NCBI GenBank assembly: GCA_023412665.1
Contig: JAEZCA010000068.1
Span: 3,651 to 67,650 of the forward strand
Reading direction: 5' to 3'
Source of the DNA: Bacillota bacterium
Lineage (GTDB): Bacteria; Bacillota; Clostridia; Acetivibrionales; DTU013
DNA length: 64,000 nt
Part shown: one piece after another, positions 1 to 30,379 of the stretch
How positions within the stretch are numbered: position 1 is the first letter of the stretch
Layout: every line of letters starts with the position of its first letter
The notes under the pieces: model-generated
What the model was told of the DNA's origin: nothing
Seen by the model: the letters and a program-made list of their open reading frames with translations, nothing else
Databases searched by the model: none
Made by a program: the position numbers and the translations under genes

Positions 1-161
1 AATTGTTTGGCGATACGCTCCCGAAAAAAAGACTCATAACAGCAGAAATCCGTCTACTTATTATCCTCAAAAACAACTGATATACTTGTTTAACAGGGAA
101 GGATAATTTGACGCCTACAACACTGCAAATTAAATTATGAAAATTGGGGGATATAATTGAC

Positions 162-1121
162 ATGAATGTAAAGAAGAAAATATGCACATTGTTGATTGCC
201 GCTGTCTGTATGACGGCAATATCGGGCTGTGGAAACGGACAGAAAGAGACACCTGTTTCAGACGCTGAATCGGTGCCGGCAGAACAAATTTCATCTGCAG
301 CAGAGACTGCCGGATCAGACGCAACAACAGTGACACCGGATAGTTTACCGACAAATGAAACTGATAAGGGTGCGGCTCCCGATGGGAAAATCGAAACATC
401 TGCGTCCGAGGATCCAAAGGATGAACTGCAATGGGATACGGAAACACTGAAAAATGAGACGGGAAAGACTTTGATAAGGTGTATAGGCAATCAAAGAGGA
501 GGCGACGGACATGTCAGCTTTGGAATAGTTTCCGCAAGGGGGACTACAATACTGGCGGATCCTATTTATTCGACCAAAGACAGAGGATATATAAAGACTG
601 ATATCATTACTGTATCGCATACTCACAGTGATCATTACAATCAAAAGCTGCAAACTAAAATGAAGGATTATGCGAGGCTTTCCTATTTTACTCCCGAGAG
701 CTTCACCGTGGAAGACGTGAATGTTATAGGAGTTACTGCATCACATTCATCGGATCCGATCAATGAATCGCGGCCGAGCAACGTGATATATGTCTATGAA
801 CTTGATGGTATCAGGATAGCCCACATGGGGGATATGGGACAGGATGAGCTTACTGCGGAGCAGCTTGAGAAGCTGGGACAGCTGGATATCATTTTCACTG
901 TAATCACCAACGCACCAAATTTCGGTTCATCAACAGAGAAGAACATAAAAATCATACAGCAGTTGAATCCAAGAATCGTAGTCCCAACACACTACTCGCA
1001 GGATGTGATTGCAGAAACGATAAAGGCTCTGGAGGTCAAAGAGTGTGAGAGTGCTACCGAACTGGTAATCAGCAAGGATGAGCTGAAGGATATGACAATG
1101 AGGTTCATCATTGTAGAATAA
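162..1121 (+). CDS. MBL-fold metallo-hydrolase, predicted lipoprotein
   Basis: ORF 144..1121. Preferred ATG at 162 with a GGGGGA Shine-Dalgarno about 9 nt upstream. N-terminus MNVKKKICTLLIAAVCMTAISGC is a signal peptide plus lipobox. HTHSDH matches the HxHxDH zinc motif. Confidence 0.8.
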   Translation: MNVKKKICTLLIAAVCMTAISGCGNGQKETPVSDAESVPAEQISSAAETAGSDATTVTPDSLPTNETDKGAAPDGKIETSASEDPKDELQWDTETLKNETGKTLIRCIGNQRGGDGHVSFGIVSARGTTILADPIYSTKDRGYIKTDIITVSHTHSDHYNQKLQTKMKDYARLSYFTPESFTVEDVNVIGVTASHSSDPINESRPSNVIYVYELDGIRIAHMGDMGQDELTAEQLEKLGQLDIIFTVITNAPNFGSSTEKNIKIIQQLNPRIVVPTHYSQDVIAETIKALEVKECESATELVISKDELKDMTMRFIIVE

Positions 1122-1126
1122 AAAGT

Positions 1127-1155
1127 GGGACGTCTTATGCAATATCAGACGTCCC
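1127..1155 (+). terminator. Stem-loop after the MBL hydrolase gene (weak T tract)
   Basis: GGGACGTCT (1127-1135) pairs with AGACGTCCC (1147-1155). No clear U-run follows. Confidence 0.35.
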
Positions 1156-1180
1156 TGCCCTTCATCGGGATATAAATCAA

Positions 1181-1189
1181 TTATCCACA
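1181..1189 (+). promoter_or_regulatory. Single perfect DnaA-box 9-mer TTATCCACA
   Basis: Exact consensus 9-mer about 90 nt upstream of the MBOAT start. An isolated box could be chance. Confidence 0.3.
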
Positions 1190-1278
1190 GCCCCAGTTGA
1201 TGAAAAACGCATTATATGTTAGAATTACAGCGTTCTGAGTATTTTGACCGGCACTTGAAGGGAAGCAAAAAAGCATAT

Positions 1279-2700
1279 ATGATTTTTTCATCATACACAT
1301 TCATTTTTATATTTTTACCGATAGTATTTACAGTCTACTATCTTGCCCAGAGATTTTTGGGGGACAAGCCGGCAAAGCTGTGGCTGGTTGGAGCGTCGCT
1401 GTATTTTTATGCTCATGGGAGCCTTGTTTTCTTACCGATCCTGGCAGGTACCGTTCTATTCAACTTTATCATCGTCAAGCTGATGAGAAGGTACAGCAGC
1501 AGGCCGGTGCTCCGAAAGCTGCTGATGTTGCTGGCAGCCCTGGAGAATCTCGGATTGCTGTTTTATTTCAAGTACATGAATTTCTTCCTTCAGAATGTCA
1601 ATTACATAACCGGCAGAGATCAGGTCCTGCTTAAAATAATACTGCCTATAGGCATTTCCTTTTATACCTTTCAGATATTGTCCCATGTTATTGACACCTA
1701 CAGAGGGGAGGGCGAGGACAGCACCTTTCTGGAGTTTTCACTGTTTGTGACATTCTTTCCCCAGCTTATCGTGGGGCCGATAATCCGGCATGATGATATG
1801 CTGGAGCAGATACGCTCCGAAAAAATCCGACGCCTTGATGCCGGCAATATTATGAAGGGTATAACACTTTTCTCAATAGGCTGTGCAAAAAAGATACTGA
1901 TAGCGGACACACTGATATCTCACGCGCAAAACTTTTATAATGTAATGGGAAACGGCAATTTCTTTGAGGCCTGGGGGGCGGTTCTGGCCTATACCTTCGC
2001 CTATTATTTTGATTTCTCGGGATATGTGGATATGGCCCTGGGACTTGGCCTGTTTTTCAATATCAGGCTGCCGGAGAATTTCAATTCACCATATAAGGCG
2101 CGTAATTTTGCTGATTTCTGGAGAAGGTGGAACATCAGTGTTTCGACCTTTTTCAATGATTATGTTTTCAGAAGGATATTCAAATTTGGAAACGGTATAC
2201 CAAAGCTGATACTGGCCACACTCGTGACATTTATTGTATCCGGCCTGTGGCATGGTGCCAGCTGGCATTATGTATTCTGGGGACTGGCAAATGGGATACT
2301 GGTCTGCTTCGCCAATATTATGACTCTGAAGCGGAAGAAGCTGCCGTTTTTTCCGGCGTGGGCTCTTACATTTTTCTTTGTGCTGCTGACCAGGGTGCTT
2401 TTTGATGCAAACGGTATGACCCAGGCAATAAATGTTTACAGGACAATGCTTGATATAAGGCCAGCGATAACGGGTTTTGCCGCCTTCCTTGGGATGGGTC
2501 TGACTTATGTGAAGGACAATTGGCTTGTGACCGCCCTTGTAATAATCGGCGCGTGCATCAGCTTTTTTGCGCCTAACAGCCGGGAGATGCTGGAGGACAG
2601 GGAGCCAAGATGGTATCATGCTGCTTTCAGTGGGGTGTTGATAACTCTGTCGCTGTTTTTTATGGGAGGTGTGTCAAACTTCCTGTACTTTCAGTTCTGA
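1279..2700 (+). CDS. MBOAT-family membrane O-acyltransferase (AlgI/DltB/PatA-like)
   Basis: ORF 1216..2700. Likely ATG at 1279 (MIFSSYTF...). Polytopic hydrophobic protein. LWHGASWHYVFWG contains the conserved MBOAT His motif. Size is AlgI-like, about 470 aa. Confidence 0.85.
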   Translation: MIFSSYTFIFIFLPIVFTVYYLAQRFLGDKPAKLWLVGASLYFYAHGSLVFLPILAGTVLFNFIIVKLMRRYSSRPVLRKLLMLLAALENLGLLFYFKYMNFFLQNVNYITGRDQVLLKIILPIGISFYTFQILSHVIDTYRGEGEDSTFLEFSLFVTFFPQLIVGPIIRHDDMLEQIRSEKIRRLDAGNIMKGITLFSIGCAKKILIADTLISHAQNFYNVMGNGNFFEAWGAVLAYTFAYYFDFSGYVDMALGLGLFFNIRLPENFNSPYKARNFADFWRRWNISVSTFFNDYVFRRIFKFGNGIPKLILATLVTFIVSGLWHGASWHYVFWGLANGILVCFANIMTLKRKKLPFFPAWALTFFFVLLTRVLFDANGMTQAINVYRTMLDIRPAITGFAAFLGMGLTYVKDNWLVTALVIIGACISFFAPNSREMLEDREPRWYHAAFSGVLITLSLFFMGGVSNFLYFQF

Positions 2701-2792
2701 CGGCTGGAAAACAGGATGTTGAGAGCTCAGACAGGCTGATACAGTCGGAATGAGCAGAATCGGAAAATATTTGCGGAGAGGGTCCAGGGACA

Positions 2793-4730
2793 GTGGAGAA
2801 GAAGCAGGCTATAAGTTTTAAAAAATGGATCGCAGTTTTTATAGTAACAGTTGTTGTTATAGGTGCTTTGATATGTGGACTCAATGCGCTTGTCGACCCC
2901 TTTGGCATTTTCGGGGATGTTGCTTTTAACTGGTATGCATATGATATGACACAGAATCCCAGAGCCGCTAAGATAGCATATCTCGATAAGAACTACGAAA
3001 AGTATGACTCGTACATCATAGGTTGTTCAAAGACAGGATCATATTCGACCGAAGCGCTGAACAAGTATTACGGCGGTGCCAGCTTCTACAATATGCTTAT
3101 GTATGGCGGGGACATGTACGATATCGAGCTGACCGCCAAATATATACTGGAAAACTATAATGTAAAAAACATAGTGATAAATATGGGGCTTGAGGAAACG
3201 GTAAGGTATGACACACAGGCTGATGAAATGAAGAGCAACCTCCATGCAAAGGTTGACGGTTCGTGGCAGCCGGCATACTATGGAAAATATCTTTTTGCAA
3301 ACCCATCCTATGCATTTTCCAAAATAGCGGCCTGGTACATGGACGGTTACCTTGTGAATGAAAATGATGTATTTCTACCCGAATCAGGGGCCTATGACAA
3401 GTCTGTCAGAGATGTGGAGCATGTGGGCAGTCTTAACGATTTTCTGACAGAGTATCCGAGCTTTAAAACCGTTCTGAAAAAAGAAAAACTTGACGCAAAG
3501 GACAAGTGCCTTGATTCTGTCCGGCGGATAAAGGAGATGTGTGATGAAAAAGGTGTCTCCTTCAGGATGATAATATCACCGATATTCCACACCGAAATGG
3601 ATATTTATGATAAAGTCCAGCTGGAGGAGTTCTTGACGGGGCTTTCACAGATAACTGATTACTGGGACTTTTCAGGATATACTTCTGTAAGCTTTGAGCC
3701 AAGGTACTTTTATGATACCTACCACTTCAGGAATGCGGTAGGGAATATGGTGCTGGCCAAAGTATTTGGTGATGAAAGCATATATTTTCCTGCGGATATC
3801 GGTCGGCATGTAACTGCGGATAATATCTCAGAGCATATATCTTCTTACTTTGGAAGCGCTGCTGCCGACGAAAACGGGGGAGGCGGCGTGAACAGCGACA
3901 GCGGAAGCAATAGTACCGACAATGTGAAAAACAGTGCTTCTCAAACGGCGGCATACAGTTGCAATGTTCCGGTCCTTATGTATCACCACTTGGACAGTGC
4001 AGCGACAAATGATGCCATTATGACTCCTGAGAGGTTCGAGGAACACATGGCTGCTCTCTCGGATGCCGGTTACTCAGCGATTTCCCTAACTCAGCTTCTC
4101 GATTATGTGGACAAAGGCCTGGAAATGCCGGAAAACCCTGTGCTGATCACTTTTGACGACGGCTATGCAAGCAATTATGAATTGGCATATCCGATTCTGG
4201 AGAAGTATAATATGAAGGCAGTGATAAATGTTATAGGAGTCACAACTGGAAAGGATAGCTACAAGGATACGGGCGCCGCTATAATACCGCATTTCACATA
4301 TGAGGAGGCCCGGGAGATGGCTGAAAGCGGTGTCATTGAGATACAGAGCCACAGCTTTGATATGCATAACACCGAGGCACTCGATGAAGATTACAGGCAG
4401 GGTGTGTATAAAAAAGCCGGAGAGACCGATGAAGAATATATAGAAGCCTTCTGCAGCGATTTTAAGAGATCGGAAAAGGAAATATTAGATAATACAGGCA
4501 ACAGGGTCATATCATACGCATATCCCAATGGCTTTTATACAACTTTGAGCGAGGTTCTTCTCAGCAGGATGGGTGTCAGGATAACGATGACTGTGGAGGA
4601 AGGCATGAACACGGTTATCAAAGGTTTGCCCCAAAGTCTGAGGGCAATGAAGCGCTACCGGGTGCATGAAGGCATCTCCGGCGAAAAGCTCGTAGAGCGT
4701 TTGAAGAAGGACAGCCAAAATGCAGGATAG
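2793..4730 (+). CDS. Membrane-anchored DltD-like (SGNH-type) domain fused to a CE4/NodB polysaccharide deacetylase domain
   Basis: GTG start. N-terminal TM helix WIAVFIVTVVVIGALICGLNALV. IIGCSKTGS aligns with DltD GSSE, and FYDTYHFRN aligns with DltD DTIH (DxxH). A Gly/Ser linker (GGGGVNSDSGSNS) follows. The CE4 half has VPVLMYHH, ITFDDGY, QSHSFDMH and YAYPNG motifs. Confidence 0.75.
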   Translation: MEKKQAISFKKWIAVFIVTVVVIGALICGLNALVDPFGIFGDVAFNWYAYDMTQNPRAAKIAYLDKNYEKYDSYIIGCSKTGSYSTEALNKYYGGASFYNMLMYGGDMYDIELTAKYILENYNVKNIVINMGLEETVRYDTQADEMKSNLHAKVDGSWQPAYYGKYLFANPSYAFSKIAAWYMDGYLVNENDVFLPESGAYDKSVRDVEHVGSLNDFLTEYPSFKTVLKKEKLDAKDKCLDSVRRIKEMCDEKGVSFRMIISPIFHTEMDIYDKVQLEEFLTGLSQITDYWDFSGYTSVSFEPRYFYDTYHFRNAVGNMVLAKVFGDESIYFPADIGRHVTADNISEHISSYFGSAAADENGGGGVNSDSGSNSTDNVKNSASQTAAYSCNVPVLMYHHLDSAATNDAIMTPERFEEHMAALSDAGYSAISLTQLLDYVDKGLEMPENPVLITFDDGYASNYELAYPILEKYNMKAVINVIGVTTGKDSYKDTGAAIIPHFTYEEAREMAESGVIEIQSHSFDMHNTEALDEDYRQGVYKKAGETDEEYIEAFCSDFKRSEKEILDNTGNRVISYAYPNGFYTTLSEVLLSRMGVRITMTVEEGMNTVIKGLPQSLRAMKRYRVHEGISGEKLVERLKKDSQNAG

Positions 4731-4854
4731 TTGATAGGGCCGGGTATGGGAGTAATACAGATATAGCAGGATAGCCGGAATAAGGTATGATACAGAGGTG
4801 TATCGTAAAAAGCAGGACAGTATGCTCGAAGTGTAGAGAGAAGGGATGATATCT

Positions 4855-5091
4855 ATGGATACAAGAGAAAGAATAATGGAGTTCTTTAAAGGCCGCAGCA
4901 GGGCTGATGACCTGAAATATGATACGGACCTGTTCAAGGGAGGCTTTATCAATTCGCTGTTTGCACTTGAAATGGTGGTATTTCTTGAAGATACCTTCAA
5001 AATAAAGATAAAGAACAAGGAAATAAACGAAAAAAACTTCAGGACTGTTGACAGTATTGCGGAAGTTGTGGAAAGAGCGAAACAAAAATAG
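4855..5091 (+). CDS. Stand-alone acyl/peptidyl carrier protein (DltC/ACP-like)
   Basis: ORF 4846..5091. ATG 4855 is better spaced from the GAGAGAAGGG Shine-Dalgarno. About 80 aa and acidic. GGFINSLFALEMVVFLED places a Ser at the DSL phosphopantetheine site followed by helix II. Confidence 0.75.
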   Translation: MDTRERIMEFFKGRSRADDLKYDTDLFKGGFINSLFALEMVVFLEDTFKIKIKNKEINEKNFRTVDSIAEVVERAKQK

Positions 5092-5109
5092 CAATCGAGG
5101 GAGATACCA

Positions 5110-6150
5110 ATGTCAAAGAAAATAAAATGCCTGGTTTGGGATCTGGACAACACGCTATGGAACGGCATACTTCTGGAGGATGGCAATGTCTCGCTCAAGG
5201 AAGGCATTATTGACATACTCCAAGAGCTGGACAGACGTGGTATATTGCTTTCGATTTCCAGCAAAAATGACCATGATGATACTATGAAAAAGCTGCGAGA
5301 GCTTGGAATAGAGGAGTATTTCATTTACCCTCAGATCGGCTGGAGCAACAAGGCTGACGCAATAAAGGAAATAGCTTCTGCCCTCAATATCAGTCTTGAT
5401 ACTTTTGCATTTATTGATGACCAGCCTTCAGAGCGCGAAGAAGTAGCATTTATGCTGCCTCAGGTTATGACCCTTGATGCAGCGGACTATAAGAGCCTTC
5501 CGGATATGGAAAGGCTAACGCCCAAATTTGTCACAGAGGATTCCAGGATGCGCAGAAAGATGTACCAGGCCGACCTTGAGCGCAAAAACGTGGAGAAAGA
5601 CTTCAAGGGCTCCAGTGAGGAGTTTCTTGCATCTCTTGGGATGGAGCTTACCGTGGCTCCTGTGGCAAAGGGAGATCTGGAGCGGGTCGAGGAGCTGACC
5701 ATACGCACAAATCAGCTGAATTCCACCGGCGTGACATACAGCTTTGAGGAACTGGAAGGGTTTATTTCATCGCCATCCCATGTTTTCCTTATTGCCGAGC
5801 TTAATGACAAATTCGGTTCATACGGCAAGATTGGGCTCGTCCTGCTGGAGGAGGCGGGAGACGAGCTGTGGATAAGGCTGTTGCTCATGTCCTGTAGAGT
5901 GATGACCAGAGGGATAGGTTCTGCTTTGCTTGTGCATATAGTTAAGCTTGCTGAAAGCAGAGGAAAAAGACTTGTTGCTGATTTTGTCGATACGGGCAGG
6001 AACAGGGTCATGTATATCACATATAAGCTGATGGGCTTTGAGGAAGCTGAGACTGACGACAGCTCTGAACAGGACAATCGCAGCGTGCTTGAGTACAGGG
6101 GCGGCAGCGACAGGGAATATCCGCCATATCTTAAGCTCATACTTAATTAA
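5110..6150 (+). CDS. HAD-IIIC / FkbH-like enzyme with GNAT-like C-terminal half
   Basis: GAGGGAG Shine-Dalgarno; starts 18 nt after the ACP stop. VWDLDNTLW is HAD motif I (DxDxT). SISSKN and FIDDQ are HAD motifs II and IV. C-terminal LLLMSCRVMTRGIG resembles the FkbH-family Cys (SCR) region, recalled from memory. Confidence 0.7.
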   Translation: MSKKIKCLVWDLDNTLWNGILLEDGNVSLKEGIIDILQELDRRGILLSISSKNDHDDTMKKLRELGIEEYFIYPQIGWSNKADAIKEIASALNISLDTFAFIDDQPSEREEVAFMLPQVMTLDAADYKSLPDMERLTPKFVTEDSRMRRKMYQADLERKNVEKDFKGSSEEFLASLGMELTVAPVAKGDLERVEELTIRTNQLNSTGVTYSFEELEGFISSPSHVFLIAELNDKFGSYGKIGLVLLEEAGDELWIRLLLMSCRVMTRGIGSALLVHIVKLAESRGKRLVADFVDTGRNRVMYITYKLMGFEEAETDDSSEQDNRSVLEYRGGSDREYPPYLKLILN

Positions 6151-6307
6151 GAGTATTTTGCTTTCCCAGAGGAGGCGGGATTATCCGGACCTTCTTAATT
6201 ATCCGGAAAGTTTCCGACAGGCCAGACAGTTGAATGGTTGATTGGGATGGGGATCGGGAGTCTGGAGCAACCCTTGCTACCTGGAAGATAAGTGTGAAGC
6301 ATAATAA

Positions 6308-6326
6308 TTTATCGAAAAACGATAAA
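6308..6326. promoter_or_regulatory. Perfect 7-bp inverted repeat TTTATCG-N5-CGATAAA just upstream of a promoter
   Basis: Read directly from the sequence. Lies 7 nt upstream of the putative -35 for the DUF2975/HTH genes. Candidate operator. Confidence 0.35.
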
Positions 6327-6332
6327 AATATA

Positions 6333-6361
6333 TTGATAAATAATAAAAACCATTGTATACT
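6333..6361 (+). promoter_or_regulatory. Sigma-A-like promoter (TTGATA-N17-TATACT)
   Basis: TTGATA at 6333-6338, 17-nt spacer, TATACT at 6356-6361. About 30 nt upstream of the 6394 start. Confidence 0.4.
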
Positions 6362-6393
6362 ATCCTTATGAATGAAAAGGGTGGTATTTTTTT

Positions 6394-6855
6394 ATGAAAA
6401 TACTTGATCGCAAGGGCCTCTCAGGGATTATACAGCGATTTGTGGAGTTGATACTGATTGGCGGTATATTGATAATACTTGGACTGCCGTTTGTGCTGAA
6501 ATGGTACATGAGCTTGCTTAACGGCAATACGACTGAGCTGTATGCTTTCCTGCTTCCGTTTCTTTATATCACAGGGATTTCAGCTGCCATGATAGTCTAT
6601 GAGCTTCGAAAAATATTCATAACGCTAAACCGCATGGATCCTTTTAGAATGGACAATGTAAAAAGCTTCAGGATAATGGCGATATGCTGTTTTATCGTAG
6701 CAGCTGCTTATATAGTCAAAATTTTTACTTTCAACTCGTTTCTTACAATTATTCTTTTCATGGTATTTGTAATTGGCGGATTCATGCTGCTTATTGTGTC
6801 TGAGGTATTCAGACAGGCGGTTATTGTAAAAGAAGAGAATGACTTAACGATATAG
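6394..6855 (+). CDS. DUF2975-like four-TM membrane protein
   Basis: Small polytopic protein directly upstream of a YozG-type HTH gene. This pairing is typical for DUF2975. Confidence 0.6.
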   Translation: MKILDRKGLSGIIQRFVELILIGGILIILGLPFVLKWYMSLLNGNTTELYAFLLPFLYITGISAAMIVYELRKIFITLNRMDPFRMDNVKSFRIMAICCFIVAAAYIVKIFTFNSFLTIILFMVFVIGGFMLLIVSEVFRQAVIVKEENDLTI

Positions 6856-6930
6856 CCAAGGCAGAAAGAGCAGCTTTGCCGTAATGACAGCCGCGGTTGA
6901 TTTGCAGGAAAGGGAGTAACAGGTGGATAA

Positions 6931-7143
6931 ATGGGTATCAGAATAAATCTGGATGTTATGATGGCCAAGCGCAAGATCGGTTTGACAGAGCTTGCCTCAA
7001 AGGTAGATTTAACGTTGGCCAATTTGTCAATATTGAAAAATAACAAGGCCAGAGCTGTCAGGTTTTCTACACTTGAAGGCCTGTGCAAGGCATTGGATTG
7101 TCAGCCGGGAGATATACTCGAGTATGAGCCGGAGGACAATTGA
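6931..7143 (+). CDS. XRE-family HTH transcriptional regulator (YozG-like)
   Basis: 70 aa. LDVMMAKRKIGLTELASKVDLTLANLSILKNNKARAVRFSTLEGLCKALDCQPGDIL is the characteristic short Cro/C1-type HTH. Confidence 0.85.
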   Translation: MGIRINLDVMMAKRKIGLTELASKVDLTLANLSILKNNKARAVRFSTLEGLCKALDCQPGDILEYEPEDN

Positions 7144-7176
7144 GACAGATATTCATGATTGCAAGGAGGGCTGGAA

Positions 7177-8766
7177 ATGAATGAAGATAATAAGAATCCA
7201 AATGATATCGAACAGCCGGGCAGGCCTATATACGGCCAACCGCAAGGGCTGATGCACAATCAGCACCAATTACCTGTCAAGCAACCATTGGTGTATAGTT
7301 CCGCAGACAAACTGCTGCTTGCAGGGGCACTCCTGTTCGGCATAATATTTGTAGGGCTCTTTTTTGACAACTATCCTGGCATTTCCGTTCCATTAATCAT
7401 AATTGTTTTTTATTCTCTGCTATTTACCTACACTAAGTCTGTACTGAAGAAGGATACCTGGTTCGGATGGTTTCTGTGTCTTCCGGTTTTTTTGCTTTCG
7501 TTGACATTCTTCCTCTTTGGAAACGAAGTGCTGATGATCCTCAATATTCTTGTGCTTCCGATGCTTATATTGCTGCAGACTATACTTGTGACAGGAGTGA
7601 ACAGCTACAAGTGGTTCAGCCCCGGAATAATACCGGATCTGTTTTTAAGTATGTTTGCCAGGTGCCTGATCCATATTCCCAAGCCATTCGGGATAATTTC
7701 ATCGATAGCCCGGACAAGGACAGGAAGCGGTGGTAAAAAGTCAGTCGGATCCAGAGTGCTTATTGGACTTATTATATCTGTACCTGTTCTGCTGGTGCTT
7801 CTCTTGCTTTTGTCATCGGCAGATATGGTTTTTGGGAAAATAGTTGAAAAGCTTCCCGACTTTCTTGAGAGTATTAATTTCAGCGAGCTTTTTTCCAGAA
7901 CTATTGTTGCATTATTTATATTTTTCATTTCCTTCAGCTATATATGGAGCCTCGGCCATGGTGAAAGATTTTTGGAAAACCGCACCGGACTGGTTTCTTC
8001 AAAAACTCCCGAGGAAAAAAGACGCTGGGACCCGGTCATATTTATTACTGTTACAGCAGCGGTCGACATACTTTATTTATTCTTTGTAGTAATACAGTTT
8101 ACTTACCTGTTTGGAAGATACGGACTACCTGAGGGTTTTACATATTCGGAGTATGCAAGAAACGGGTTCTCCGAGCTTGTGCTTGTATCGCTGCTTAATA
8201 TGGGGATGCTGGCAATCACGCTGACCTATACAAAAATTATGAATGGTTTCGGCGACAGAATATTCAGGCTTTTAAACTCGATAATGATCTGCTGCACCTT
8301 TGTCATGTTGTGCTCAGCCTATTACAGGATGTCGCTTTATGAGGCAGCATATGGGTTTACTTTTCTTCGCATCATGACCCAAGCCTTCATGATCTTTCTA
8401 TTCGTTTTATTCGTCATTACCATGGTAAGGGTTTGGAATGACCGTGTTCCACTGCTCAAACCCTATATCGCTGCTGCAGTGATCGCTTTTACGATCATTA
8501 ACTATATCAATGTAGATGCGGTGATAGCGCAGAAAAACATTGAAAGGTATCGTAAGACGGGGATAATTGATGTTCACTATTTCAACAGCCTTTCCAGCTC
8601 TGCTATCGATGAACTCATAGAGCTCTCCAACGACAGCGACCCGGAGGTTGCATCGGAGGCGGAGAAGATACTGGAGTCTAAAAAAATGTGGTTGTTGAGT
8701 AAAACGAAATGGCAATCATTTAATCTGGCTGATCACTATGCCAGAAAGGAAATGTCCAAGCAATGA
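7177..8766 (+). CDS. Large polytopic membrane protein (DUF4153/DUF4173-like)
   Basis: ORF 7159..8766. ATG 7177 lies 7 nt after AGGAGGG. More than 10 hydrophobic segments and a soluble C-terminal tail. The family assignment is tentative. Confidence 0.55.
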   Translation: MNEDNKNPNDIEQPGRPIYGQPQGLMHNQHQLPVKQPLVYSSADKLLLAGALLFGIIFVGLFFDNYPGISVPLIIIVFYSLLFTYTKSVLKKDTWFGWFLCLPVFLLSLTFFLFGNEVLMILNILVLPMLILLQTILVTGVNSYKWFSPGIIPDLFLSMFARCLIHIPKPFGIISSIARTRTGSGGKKSVGSRVLIGLIISVPVLLVLLLLLSSADMVFGKIVEKLPDFLESINFSELFSRTIVALFIFFISFSYIWSLGHGERFLENRTGLVSSKTPEEKRRWDPVIFITVTAAVDILYLFFVVIQFTYLFGRYGLPEGFTYSEYARNGFSELVLVSLLNMGMLAITLTYTKIMNGFGDRIFRLLNSIMICCTFVMLCSAYYRMSLYEAAYGFTFLRIMTQAFMIFLFVLFVITMVRVWNDRVPLLKPYIAAAVIAFTIINYINVDAVIAQKNIERYRKTGIIDVHYFNSLSSSAIDELIELSNDSDPEVASEAEKILESKKMWLLSKTKWQSFNLADHYARKEMSKQ

Positions 8767-8802
8767 TGTTATCATCCGGTTTTCCGGACTATAGCATTGT
8801 AC

Positions 8803-9294
8803 TCAGCTTATACCTGAGATCTTATTGAGCAATGTGAACAGAACAACAGCGGTATTTGATATACTGGCAAGGAATATTTGCGGCTTGTGCTTGTTCCTGT
8901 CGAAAATACCGCTGTTTTTTCCTATTTTCTTCTGAATGAAATAAAGCTGAAGCAATATGGAAAGTGCTGTAACGCCCTTGAGCAGAATGCTTTCGAGATA
9001 AAATGCGCAGTAACATAAAAATAGTATAATTATTAGATTGCATACGACGCTCAAGCCGGCCCCGAACATTTTCAGGTCTATATCCACCAGCTCTTCCAGT
9101 TCCTCCTCCAGCTCCTCGTCGACTTCCTTTTCCTCAAAACCGTTCCCTTTAGCAATATTATATATATTGGCAAATGATATTACTGTCAGTATCGTTGCGA
9201 TCACACCGAAAAAAATCTGATGATTCGCTGAGATAGTAATAACAGGGAATGCAAGTATTACTAAAAAAATTAATGTGCTGCCTCTGGATTGCAT
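8803..9294 (-). CDS. Membrane protein with acidic loop (unknown function)
   Basis: GGGAGA Shine-Dalgarno 8 nt upstream. Four hydrophobic segments. Loop EEKEVDEELEEELEELVD. Confidence 0.5.
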   Translation of the reverse strand: MQSRGSTLIFLVILAFPVITISANHQIFFGVIATILTVISFANIYNIAKGNGFEEKEVDEELEEELEELVDIDLKMFGAGLSVVCNLIIILFLCYCAFYLESILLKGVTALSILLQLYFIQKKIGKNSGIFDRNKHKPQIFLASISNTAVVLFTLLNKISGIS

Positions 9295-30001: not shown

Positions 30002-30379
30002 ATGTCAGTACATTGTGGTGTCGATATAATCGAGATAGACAGGGTGAAAAAATCTGTTGATGAGCTTGAAAGCTTCAGAAGCAGGGTTTTCACAGAGAAA
30101 GAGATAGCATACTGCGAGGGTAGGAACAAAGCAAAATACGAGAGCTATGCAGCCAGATTCGCCGCGAAGGAGGCAGTTCTGAAAGCTCTGGGGACTGGTC
30201 TTTCCGACGGAGTCGAGTGGAAGCACATAGAGATCAGCAATGATGAAAGGGGAAAGCCTGTGGTGGCTTTGACACACAGAGCCCTTGACATCTTTCGGGA
30301 AATGAATGGGAAGAGCATCGATATAAGCCTTTCCCACTGCAGTACATATGCAGTGGCATATGCAGTGATAGAAAATTAA
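30002..30379 (+). CDS. acpS: Holo-[acyl-carrier-protein] synthase
   Basis: 125 aa. GVDIIEIDRV, RFAAKEAVLKALG and ISLSHC motifs. Confidence 0.9.
   Translation: MSVHCGVDIIEIDRVKKSVDELESFRSRVFTEKEIAYCEGRNKAKYESYAARFAAKEAVLKALGTGLSDGVEWKHIEISNDERGKPVVALTHRALDIFREMNGKSIDISLSHCSTYAVAYAVIEN

Follow-up and report, generated by a model that had tools for sequence, protein, structure and literature searches.

A conserved FkbH- and carrier-containing MBOAT cassette of Clostridia, predicted to attach glyceryl groups to an envelope polymer

Introduction

What supplies the acyl group to a membrane acyltransferase whose gene is followed by those for an extracytoplasmic protein, a small carrier protein and an FkbH-family enzyme, with no adenylation enzyme encoded alongside? 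The question is raised by the genes at positions 1216-6150 of a 64-kb stretch of contig JAEZCA010000068.1 from a Bacillota bacterium (64,000 nucleotides, hereafter the window, numbered from its first letter). These encode an acyltransferase of the MBOAT family, a bifunctional protein with a DltD-like SGNH domain and a CE4 deacetylase domain (hereafter P3), a stand-alone acyl carrier protein (ACP) and an FkbH-family enzyme. To date the D-alanylation carried out by the Dlt pathway is the only known case of carrier-dependent acylation of bacterial envelope polymers, all other MBOAT-SGNH systems being thought to be fed by acetyl-CoA (PMC12148441). The cassette suggests MBOAT-SGNH envelope acylation with a Dlt-like carrier dependence, in which FkbH is the loader and both the shuttle motif and a CE4 domain are present as fusions. 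We consider it moderately probable, for the chain as a whole, that the four genes form a self-contained system for the glyceryl-acylation of an envelope polymer, fed by a carrier protein and not by acyl-CoA.

Earlier work bears on both halves of this reading. A hexapeptide serves as the acyl shuttle of MBOAT systems: DltB loads D-alanine onto the tyrosine of the DltX microprotein, and PatA auto-acetylates the tyrosine of a hexapeptide fused at its own C-terminus; the acyl group is next picked up by the SGNH partner (PMC12148441). FkbH and the ACP of the hydroxymalonyl/methoxymalonyl cassette are reported to convert 1,3-bisphosphoglycerate into glyceryl-ACP (PMC7489565; work cited in PMC3679948), after which oxidation by two dehydrogenases yields hydroxymalonyl-ACP (PMC7489565; PMC3679948).

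Results

Conservation of the cassette

The five open reading frames (ORFs) that an earlier note on this DNA had grouped into one cluster, the first of them at 144/162-1121, are all present on one strand in the ORF list of the window (Table 1). The motifs quoted in that note and the 18-nt gap between the carrier stop at 5091 and the FkbH start at 5110 were verified by translation.

Table 1. Genes of the cassette, followed by other features of the window
Feature	Coordinates	Strand	Best support
MBOAT membrane acyltransferase	1216..2700	+	PF03062, 118.9 bits
P3, bifunctional extracytoplasmic protein, 645 aa	2793..4730	+	CE4 PF01522, 69 bits; DltD-like fold in AlphaFold2 model
Stand-alone acyl carrier protein, FkbJ-like, 81 aa	4846..5091	+	PF00550, 18.2 bits; 15 NCBIfam ACP models
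FkbH-family enzyme, HAD-IIIC + GNAT-fold	5110..6150	+	TIGR01686, 275.3 bits
MBL-fold lipoprotein hydrolase	162..1121	+	PF13483, 97.8 bits; outside the conserved cassette
acpS, holo-ACP synthase	30002..30379	+	PF01648, 71.3 bits; unlinked to the cassette

Conservation was assessed in two censuses, the loci of which were pooled and scored by phmmer: an FkbH alignment was searched against one genome per GTDB species, where at least 596 hits were obtained and the 80 best were kept, and the P3 N-terminal domain was searched against metagenome contigs, giving 80 loci. Among the best 80 genome hits, 15 carried the cassette, which together with the source contig of the window makes 16 genome-derived loci, mostly from metagenome-assembled genomes (MAGs) of Clostridia/Bacillota (Oscillospiraceae, Peptococcaceae, Family XIII, Ornithomonoglobus), with one Chloroflexota MAG. 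The order MBOAT-P3-ACP-FkbH is the same in 34 of the 37 FkbH-containing loci, while the flanks differ at every locus. Since the same order recurs across loci with unrelated flanks, the grouping is far beyond chance, and the proposed co-occurrence of a carrier protein, an FkbH-like enzyme, an MBOAT and a DltD-like protein is borne out. The conserved unit is however one of four genes, not five.

As the earlier note had it, a DltA-type ligase is missing: no adenylation-enzyme homologue was detected in the 64-kb window, in the 10 kb upstream on the source contig, or in the 37 FkbH loci. The other loci of the genome census (among their sources are Streptomyces, Paenibacillus, Brevibacillus, Sorangium, cyanobacteria and Acidobacteriota) show a different arrangement, 3-hydroxyacyl-CoA dehydrogenase - ACP - acyl-CoA dehydrogenase - FkbH, adjoining genes of non-ribosomal peptide synthetases (NRPS) or polyketide synthases (PKS); this is the canonical FkbK-FkbJ-FkbI-FkbH cassette for hydroxymalonyl/methoxymalonyl-ACP. 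The genes shared by the 16 genome-derived cassette loci include no dehydrogenase of the FkbI/FkbK type, and none recurs in the flanks of the cassettes. More generally, clustering of these 16 loci and a Pfam census of the flanks (86 genes around 25 cassettes) revealed no recurrent family, the maximum being 3 of 86 genes, and neither such a dehydrogenase nor an O-methyltransferase recurs in or beside the cassette. The flank census contained, among its 86 genes, two SLH proteins, two GT2 glycosyltransferases and two phosphopantetheinyl transferases (PF01648).

A sister operon with an adenylation loader

A second type of operon pairs the same kind of P3 fusion with a different loader. Its order is amino-acid adenylation enzyme, GNAT protein, carrier protein, MBOAT and P3-like DltD-like/CE4 fusion (exemplified by L130:2862-8866, and found likewise in L105, L110, L115, L118, L141, L145, L150, L159, L160 and others), such that the loader genes lie upstream of the MBOAT gene. 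The operon derives mostly from human-gut metagenome contigs, with some protein clusters holding about 400-1000 member sequences, and appears to be uncharacterised, its proteins being named only 'polysaccharide deacetylase family protein'. The adenylation enzyme scores 356 bits with TIGR01733 and about 270 bits, below cutoff, with DltA models, and the accompanying GNAT protein suggests an N-acetylated aminoacyl cargo. The P3 N-terminal domain is 43-50% identical to that of the cassette, while the MBOAT (about 140 bits) and the carrier (about 15 bits) bear only a distant relationship to their counterparts in the window. Still, the sister MBOATs end in a hexapeptide of the FIYKQF type, and the histidine and an F-L/I-Y-x-x-F/Y motif are common to both operon types.

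The pooled loci divide by loader: 37 hold FkbH and no adenylation enzyme, 30 hold an adenylation enzyme and no FkbH, and none holds both, with 29 showing neither, mostly on contigs that end on the relevant side. One type of DltD-like/CE4 protein is thus served by two alternative modules of loader and carrier. That the sister operon exchanges FkbH and ACP for an adenylation enzyme, a GNAT protein and a carrier is what would be expected if FkbH is the loader of the carrier, and the mutual exclusion of the loaders beside the same P3 fusion is the strongest available evidence that FkbH and ACP feed the MBOAT.

The FkbH enzyme and its carrier protein

The product of the last gene belongs to the FkbH family and is not a plain phosphatase or GNAT protein, as its score exceeds the TIGR01686 cutoff (146.65), with the HAD-IIIC model TIGR01681 likewise matched above its cutoff (72.5 against 35.75 bits). 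The enzyme carries the motifs WDLDNT (DLDNT at aa 11-15) and MSCRVM, the latter with Cys262 (nt 5893-5895). Residues D11, D13 and T15 of the DxDxT motif, D103/D104 and C262 are invariant across the cassette clade and the PKS/NRPS-linked clade. In an AlphaFold2 model (pLDDT 82) the N-terminal domain matches HAD phosphatases and the C-terminal domain GNAT acyltransferases, which fits a bifunctional phosphatase/acyl-transfer enzyme. The window protein is 50-58% identical to the FkbHs of FkbK-FkbJ-FkbI-FkbH cassettes, and in a neighbour-joining tree the FkbHs of the cassette form a single clade, apart from the PKS/NRPS-linked ones. We infer from this relationship that the enzyme is the loader, predicted to make glyceryl-S-ACP from 1,3-bisphosphoglycerate. 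In the source databases the cassette proteins are named only as HAD-IIIC family phosphatase/FkbH-like protein and polysaccharide deacetylase family protein.

The small ORF upstream probably encodes a carrier protein, as proposed, on the strength of its homology to FkbJ-type ACPs and of its matches to 15 NCBIfam ACP models, the best at 42 bits (E 9e-11) and all under their own cutoffs; the DltC model NF003464 yields 36.3 bits (cutoff 68). Its start is probably the ATG at 4855, which is favoured by the orthologues and by the gene call on the contig. The motif FINSLFALEMVVFLE contains the predicted phosphopantetheine-attachment residue, Ser37 (nt 4954-4956), within a G-x-x-N/D-S-L-F consensus whose serine is invariant in 16 homologues, FkbJ-type ACPs above the Pfam gathering threshold for PF00550 included. 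The carrier shares 33-40% identity with FkbJ-type ACPs from PKS/NRPS cassettes, and the homologues above that threshold include those of L007 (24.5 bits) and L029 (31.1 bits).

As for the phosphopantetheine arm, the acpS gene pointed out in the earlier note is confirmed (Table 1) and is a possible source for the carrier. Two cassette loci are flanked by a PF01648 phosphopantetheinyl transferase. One of the two is the enzyme at L094:4573-5496 (- strand), divergent and immediately upstream of the cassette MBOAT gene, which a motif search identified as Sfp-type. A search for such enzymes beside cassettes with AcpS as query gave no useful match.

The MBOAT

The MBOAT probably starts at 1279 (MIFSSY, ATG), from where 15 orthologues align. 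It holds the motif GLWHGASWH with the predicted catalytic His346 (nt 2251-2253), the WHG..WH pattern with this histidine being invariant among the 15 aligned orthologues. The closest NCBIfam model is DltB (TIGR04091, 151.8 bits, under its cutoff of 375) and the closest solved structures are likewise DltB (8jem and 6bug, E 1e-28). The protein was previously described as of AlgI/DltB type, and while the family assignment stands, a DltB-like architecture does not: the chain ends in the hexapeptide FLYFQF (nt 2680-2697), with Tyr491 at 2686-2688, and by this fused C-terminal tyrosine motif the MBOAT is assigned to the PatA/AlgI type. F489, L490, Y491 and F494 are invariant in the 15 orthologues (F-L-Y-x-x-F), and of 40 MBOAT tails of the cassette (type A), 34 read FLYFQF and 6 a near variant, always with the tyrosine. 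As the hexapeptide is fused, no DltX is needed, and the 94-nt gap 5' of the MBOAT ORF contains no ORF of at least 50 aa that could be a separate DltX. MBOATs with a fused hexapeptide that have been characterised so far use acetyl-CoA as donor and no carrier protein (PMC12148441); the presence of a fused motif and a carrier protein in one cassette is a hybrid outside that description.

The P3 fusion protein

P3 consists of a transmembrane helix (aa 9-34), a DltD-like SGNH domain (aa ~36-355), a Gly/Ser-rich linker (aa ~356-390) and a CE4 domain (aa ~391-645). In the SGNH domain, Ser79 (GCSKT, nt 3027-3029), Gly105/106 and Asp308-x-x-His311 (nt 3714-3725) stand out: S79, G105, G106, D308 and H311 do not vary among 36 homologues, and Ser79/Asp308/His311 are the predicted catalytic triad. 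An AlphaFold2 model of aa 1-385 (pLDDT 84.1, pTM 0.82) shows the N-terminal transmembrane helix followed by an alpha/beta domain. With this model as a Foldseek query against the PDB, the top 11 matches were all DltD (7dxm, 6pfx, 6o93, 3bma), from four species and with probabilities of 0.94-1.00, followed by generic GDSL/SGNH hydrolases and the SGNH domain of OatA. The N-terminal 385 residues match no Pfam or NCBIfam model even at E<=5, in any of the 36 homologues (36/36), and a profile search of PDB sequences up to E=1 was equally without match. In the model, then, the likeness to DltD is one of fold only, so that of the fusion proposed in the earlier note, a membrane-anchored DltD-like SGNH domain joined to a CE4 deacetylase, the deacetylase half is sound and the DltD half holds by fold and not by sequence.

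The CE4 domain (PF01522 at aa 445-596, gathering threshold 23.1) contains TFDDG at aa 453 and HSFDMH (H-x4-H) at aa 520, in columns nearly invariant among homologues. Its best NCBIfam model is PgaB (TIGR03938, 134 bits), without the PgaB/IcaB equivalog cutoffs being reached. Against the PDB it matches BpsB, PgaB and IcaB at E 1e-25 to 1e-28, as compared with E > 0.1 for peptidoglycan deacetylases.

Among 1.84 billion cluster representatives, the family of the P3 N-terminal domain comprises 1416 at E<=1e-3, in two length classes, fused proteins of ~600 aa and more distant stand-alone ones of ~355 aa. Stand-alone relatives (P0333-P0385) are ~340-370 aa long and 25-30% identical, and some show a weak match to DUF1574, the best of which (E 1e-6) falls slightly short of the gathering score. 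Orphan P3 fusions, with no MBOAT, ACP or FkbH gene nearby, occur at L100:799-4496, L103:2267-5964 and L106:5145-7975. All three lie downstream of a gene for a 444-aa SLH-domain protein and a 73-aa ORF, a setting that hints at an association with the cell wall or with a secondary wall polymer.

Surroundings of the cassette

The MBL-fold hydrolase had been counted as a fifth member of the cluster. From 162 it reads as a lipoprotein (MNVKKK start, AISGC lipobox), and a homologue was found solely in the window's own source contig (L001), none in the other cassette loci, so it is set aside from the unit; it may be a local accessory or unrelated. Immediately upstream of it, on the opposite strand of the source contig, lies a gene for a 759-aa leucine-rich repeat protein. 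Farther out, 4.5-10 kb before the window start (L001:35-5344), are a DDE_Tnp_1 transposase, a fragment of a Y1 (IS200-type) transposase and a sigma-70/zinc-ribbon pair. Directly 3' of the cassette, at 6394-8766 (+), the window encodes a membrane protein with DUF2975, a 70-aa regulator of the HTH_26 (XRE) type and a membrane protein with DUF4153, which are not conserved with the cassette.

An Rfam scan of positions 1-9000 at E<=0.1 gave no match to a regulatory RNA. A terminator scan placed no terminator-like site in the intergenic gaps of the cassette; the single + strand site within 1216-6150 lies inside the 3' end of the MBOAT gene. The promoter and terminator scans of this region gave consensus matches only.

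Among the other loci, an otherwise standard cassette has an insertion between its P3 and ACP genes (L020:3455-4531), which encodes a protein of 358 aa that weakly matches subtilase (S8). On a 2.6-Mb contig that lies outside the flank census (L162:11196-14197), the cassette is directly followed by a GT2-GtrA fusion and a 634-aa protein without a Pfam match. This fusion is polyprenyl-phosphate glycosyltransferase-like, and the arrangement resembles systems for extracytoplasmic glycosylation of wall polymers.

Discussion

Proposed mechanism

By analogy with its family, FkbH would take 1,3-bisphosphoglycerate from glycolysis in the cytoplasm and form a 3-phosphoglyceryl thioester on Cys262, whereupon its HAD domain would remove the phosphate and the glyceryl group would pass to the ACP, on the phosphopantetheine arm that Ser37 carries. 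As the two dehydrogenases are absent from the cassette, the pathway should stop at glyceryl-ACP, which is the predicted cargo. Glyceryl-S-ACP would then dock at the cytoplasmic face of the MBOAT, and His346 would catalyse transfer of the glyceryl group to the protein's own Tyr491 (FLYFQF) at the outer face, by analogy to DltB/DltX and PatA. From there Ser79 of the putative Ser79/Asp308/His311 triad of P3 may accept the group and pass it on to an extracytoplasmic acceptor. The same polymer would be the target of the CE4 domain fused to P3, which would either expose the acceptor site by de-N-acetylation or trim the modification. Given that this domain is of the PgaB/IcaB type, the acceptor is most likely a glycan that contains N-acetylglucosamine (GlcNAc). 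The earlier proposal of a carrier-fed esterification system with a glyceryl-type cargo is thereby supported by the identity of FkbH, the ACP, the co-occurrence and the exchange of loaders in the sister operon, with cargo, direction of transfer and acceptor as its predicted elements.

Several points weigh against this chain. The substrate specificity of FkbH is deduced from ~55% identity; PF00550 is matched by the carrier at 18.2 bits and E 0.003, below the gathering threshold of 20.8. The P3 N-terminal domain superposes on DltD with TM-scores of just 0.31-0.39, sequence-level support being absent. The acetyl-CoA-fed precedents for a fused hexapeptide, described above, count here as well, and nothing in the flanks names the acceptor polymer in the 86-gene census. 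Finally, three loci break the linkage of MBOAT and P3 with ACP and FkbH. L140:1813-5551 has its CE4 and DltD-like domains (the latter 341 aa) on two different proteins, together with an MBOAT of the cassette type, and the ~7 kb downstream that were examined contain neither ACP nor FkbH; L007:8742-10011 holds an ACP-FkbH pair of the cassette clade with no MBOAT or P3 nearby; and L008:6667-10023 holds P3-ACP-FkbH without an adjacent MBOAT. In L007 and L008 the missing partners may be encoded elsewhere in the genome. The genes that come next in L140 are those of a 4HBT thioesterase, a BKACE protein, a kinase of the amino-acid kinase family type and an aldolase of class II.

Alternative explanations

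These last loci, in which the pairs stand apart, are also what lends substance to the view that the four genes are chance neighbours, the MBOAT and P3 forming an acetyl-CoA-fed, PatA/PatB-like pair, as the carrier-free precedents for the fused hexapeptide (PMC12148441) would suggest, and ACP and FkbH making glyceryl-ACP that goes into something else, for instance a lipid or small metabolite. We judge this unlikely. It is at odds with the constant order in nearly all FkbH-containing loci despite unrelated flanks, and with the sister operon, which too sets a carrier and a loader beside an MBOAT of the same motif and a P3 fusion, the two loaders being mutually exclusive. Moreover, no consumer of glyceryl-ACP (ketosynthase, FabH-like enzyme, condensation domain or dehydrogenases) recurs in or beside the cassette, with no search aimed at ketosynthases having been made.

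The proposed system could also operate with another cargo, namely 3-phosphoglyceryl, hydroxymalonyl (if the dehydrogenases were encoded elsewhere) or another group derived from an acyl phosphate. The identity of the cargo rests only on the similarity to PKS-linked FkbHs noted above, and the cassette FkbHs form a clade of their own that could differ in specificity. Yet the DxDxT motif, the aspartate pair and the catalytic cysteine are invariant across both clades, and no FkbI/FkbK-type dehydrogenase or O-methyltransferase accompanies the cassette, such that we give this variant a low probability, a little below that of two independent pairs. Lastly, FkbH and FkbJ-like ACPs are classic accessory genes of PKSs, and the closest relatives outside the cassette clade adjoin NRPS/PKS genes, but it is highly improbable that these genes are a piece of a secondary-metabolite cluster which supplies an unusual PKS/NRPS extender unit, considering that neither the 7-10 kb around any cassette nor the 64-kb window holds a homologue of an NRPS adenylation domain, that no PKS/NRPS family recurs in the cassette loci or flanks (where no search aimed at ketosynthases was made), and that the constant partners are an MBOAT and an extracytoplasmic SGNH/CE4 protein.

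Implications

If the carrier-fed glyceryl-acylation system is taken as the working model, the retention of the CE4-DltD-like fusion in both the FkbH-fed and the adenylation-fed operons becomes the starting point for a further proposal, in which P3 is an 'acyl-editing' machine. Its CE4 domain would strip the N-acetyl group from GlcNAc, and its SGNH domain would then place the group delivered by the carrier on the amine so exposed or on a hydroxyl next to it, this group being glyceryl in the cassette and aminoacyl or N-acetyl-aminoacyl in the gut sister system. This is speculative and on balance rather unlikely. Were it true, N-glyceroyl or O-glyceryl sugars would be made on a wall glycan or exopolysaccharide, and MBOATs with a fused motif could take interchangeable carrier-protein loaders. 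To our knowledge, such sugars have not been described as a cell-surface modification for Firmicutes.

Independently of such editing, the cassette predicts a second carrier-fed route, in which a HAD/GNAT loader working on glycolytic 1,3-bisphosphoglycerate replaces the adenylation enzyme, and a different cargo, the neutral and hydrophilic glyceryl group. A module known as a polyketide accessory (FkbH/FkbJ) would thus have been recruited into envelope biogenesis. Together with the gut sister operon, the cassette suggests that the MBOAT and SGNH/CE4 core is a platform for interchangeable loaders. If so, Clostridia, abundant human-gut lineages included, may bear unrecognised surface modifications, of relevance to recognition by phages, lysozyme, antimicrobial peptides and the immune system. 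In the full-text literature we found no paper that connects an MBOAT/SGNH system of the envelope with FkbH or with a carrier protein other than that of Dlt, in a search that did not cover the hexapeptide survey of Schultz et al. 2023 (Nat Microbiol), which may mention such operons. Among the papers found, only work on aeruginosin/suomilide clusters names both FkbH and MBOAT.

Comparison with known systems

A close functional parallel is the Dlt system (DltX-DltA-DltB-DltC-DltD). In Dlt, and by prediction in the cassette, a small carrier loaded by a cytoplasmic enzyme hands its acyl group to an MBOAT for passage through the membrane to the tyrosine of an F-x-Y-x-x-F motif, and a membrane-anchored SGNH protein with a Ser/Asp/His triad finishes the transfer. 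The layout of Ser79, Gly105 and Asp308-x-x-His311 in P3 parallels Ser74, Gly104, Asp373 and His376 of L. plantarum DltD (PMC13653941). The cassette differs from Dlt in its loader, an FkbH-family HAD/GNAT enzyme in place of an adenylation enzyme; in the predicted glyceryl cargo, as opposed to D-alanine on teichoic acids; in the fusion of the tyrosine motif to the MBOAT, where Dlt has the separate DltX; and in the CE4 deacetylase fused to the DltD-like domain. At the level of models the two are distinct as well, the cassette proteins being below cutoff or unmatched on all Dlt equivalog models, with no DltD model at E<=0.01.

With PatA/PatB, which O-acetylates peptidoglycan, and AlgI/AlgJ/AlgX the cassette shares an MBOAT with a conserved histidine and a C-terminal hexapeptide whose tyrosine serves, or is predicted to serve, as the acyl shuttle, paired with an extracytoplasmic SGNH transferase (PMC12148441). 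Those systems however use acetyl-CoA and are described as carrier-free, whereas the cassette encodes a dedicated ACP and loader, and its SGNH partner is DltD-like, not PatB/AlgJ-like, and carries a CE4 domain.

The FkbH/FkbJ module of methoxymalonyl-/hydroxymalonyl-ACP and tetronate pathways (FK520, zwittermicin, tetronomycin, tetromadurin) is the counterpart of the loading step: identity over FkbH is 50-58% with all motifs kept, a stand-alone FkbJ-like ACP is adjacent, and the expected product is glyceryl-S-ACP from 1,3-bisphosphoglycerate (PMC7489565). In contrast to these pathways, the cassette is without the FkbI/FkbK dehydrogenases, the O-methyltransferase, a FabH-like enzyme and PKS/NRPS genes; its ACP gene is directly upstream of FkbH, and the module is wired to a membrane acyltransferase, not to an assembly line.

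The de-N-acetylases of poly-beta-1,6-GlcNAc (PNAG), PgaB, IcaB and BpsB, are the best match for the C-terminal domain of P3, which keeps TFDDG and H-x4-H. Unlike them, the domain scores below the equivalog cutoffs and is fused to a predicted SGNH acyltransferase domain, and no PNAG synthase genes adjoin the cassette. Also close is the sister operon, which has the same P3 fusion, an MBOAT with fused motif, and a carrier and loader in the operon, and which differs in that its loader is a DltA-like adenylation enzyme with a GNAT protein, placed upstream of the MBOAT.

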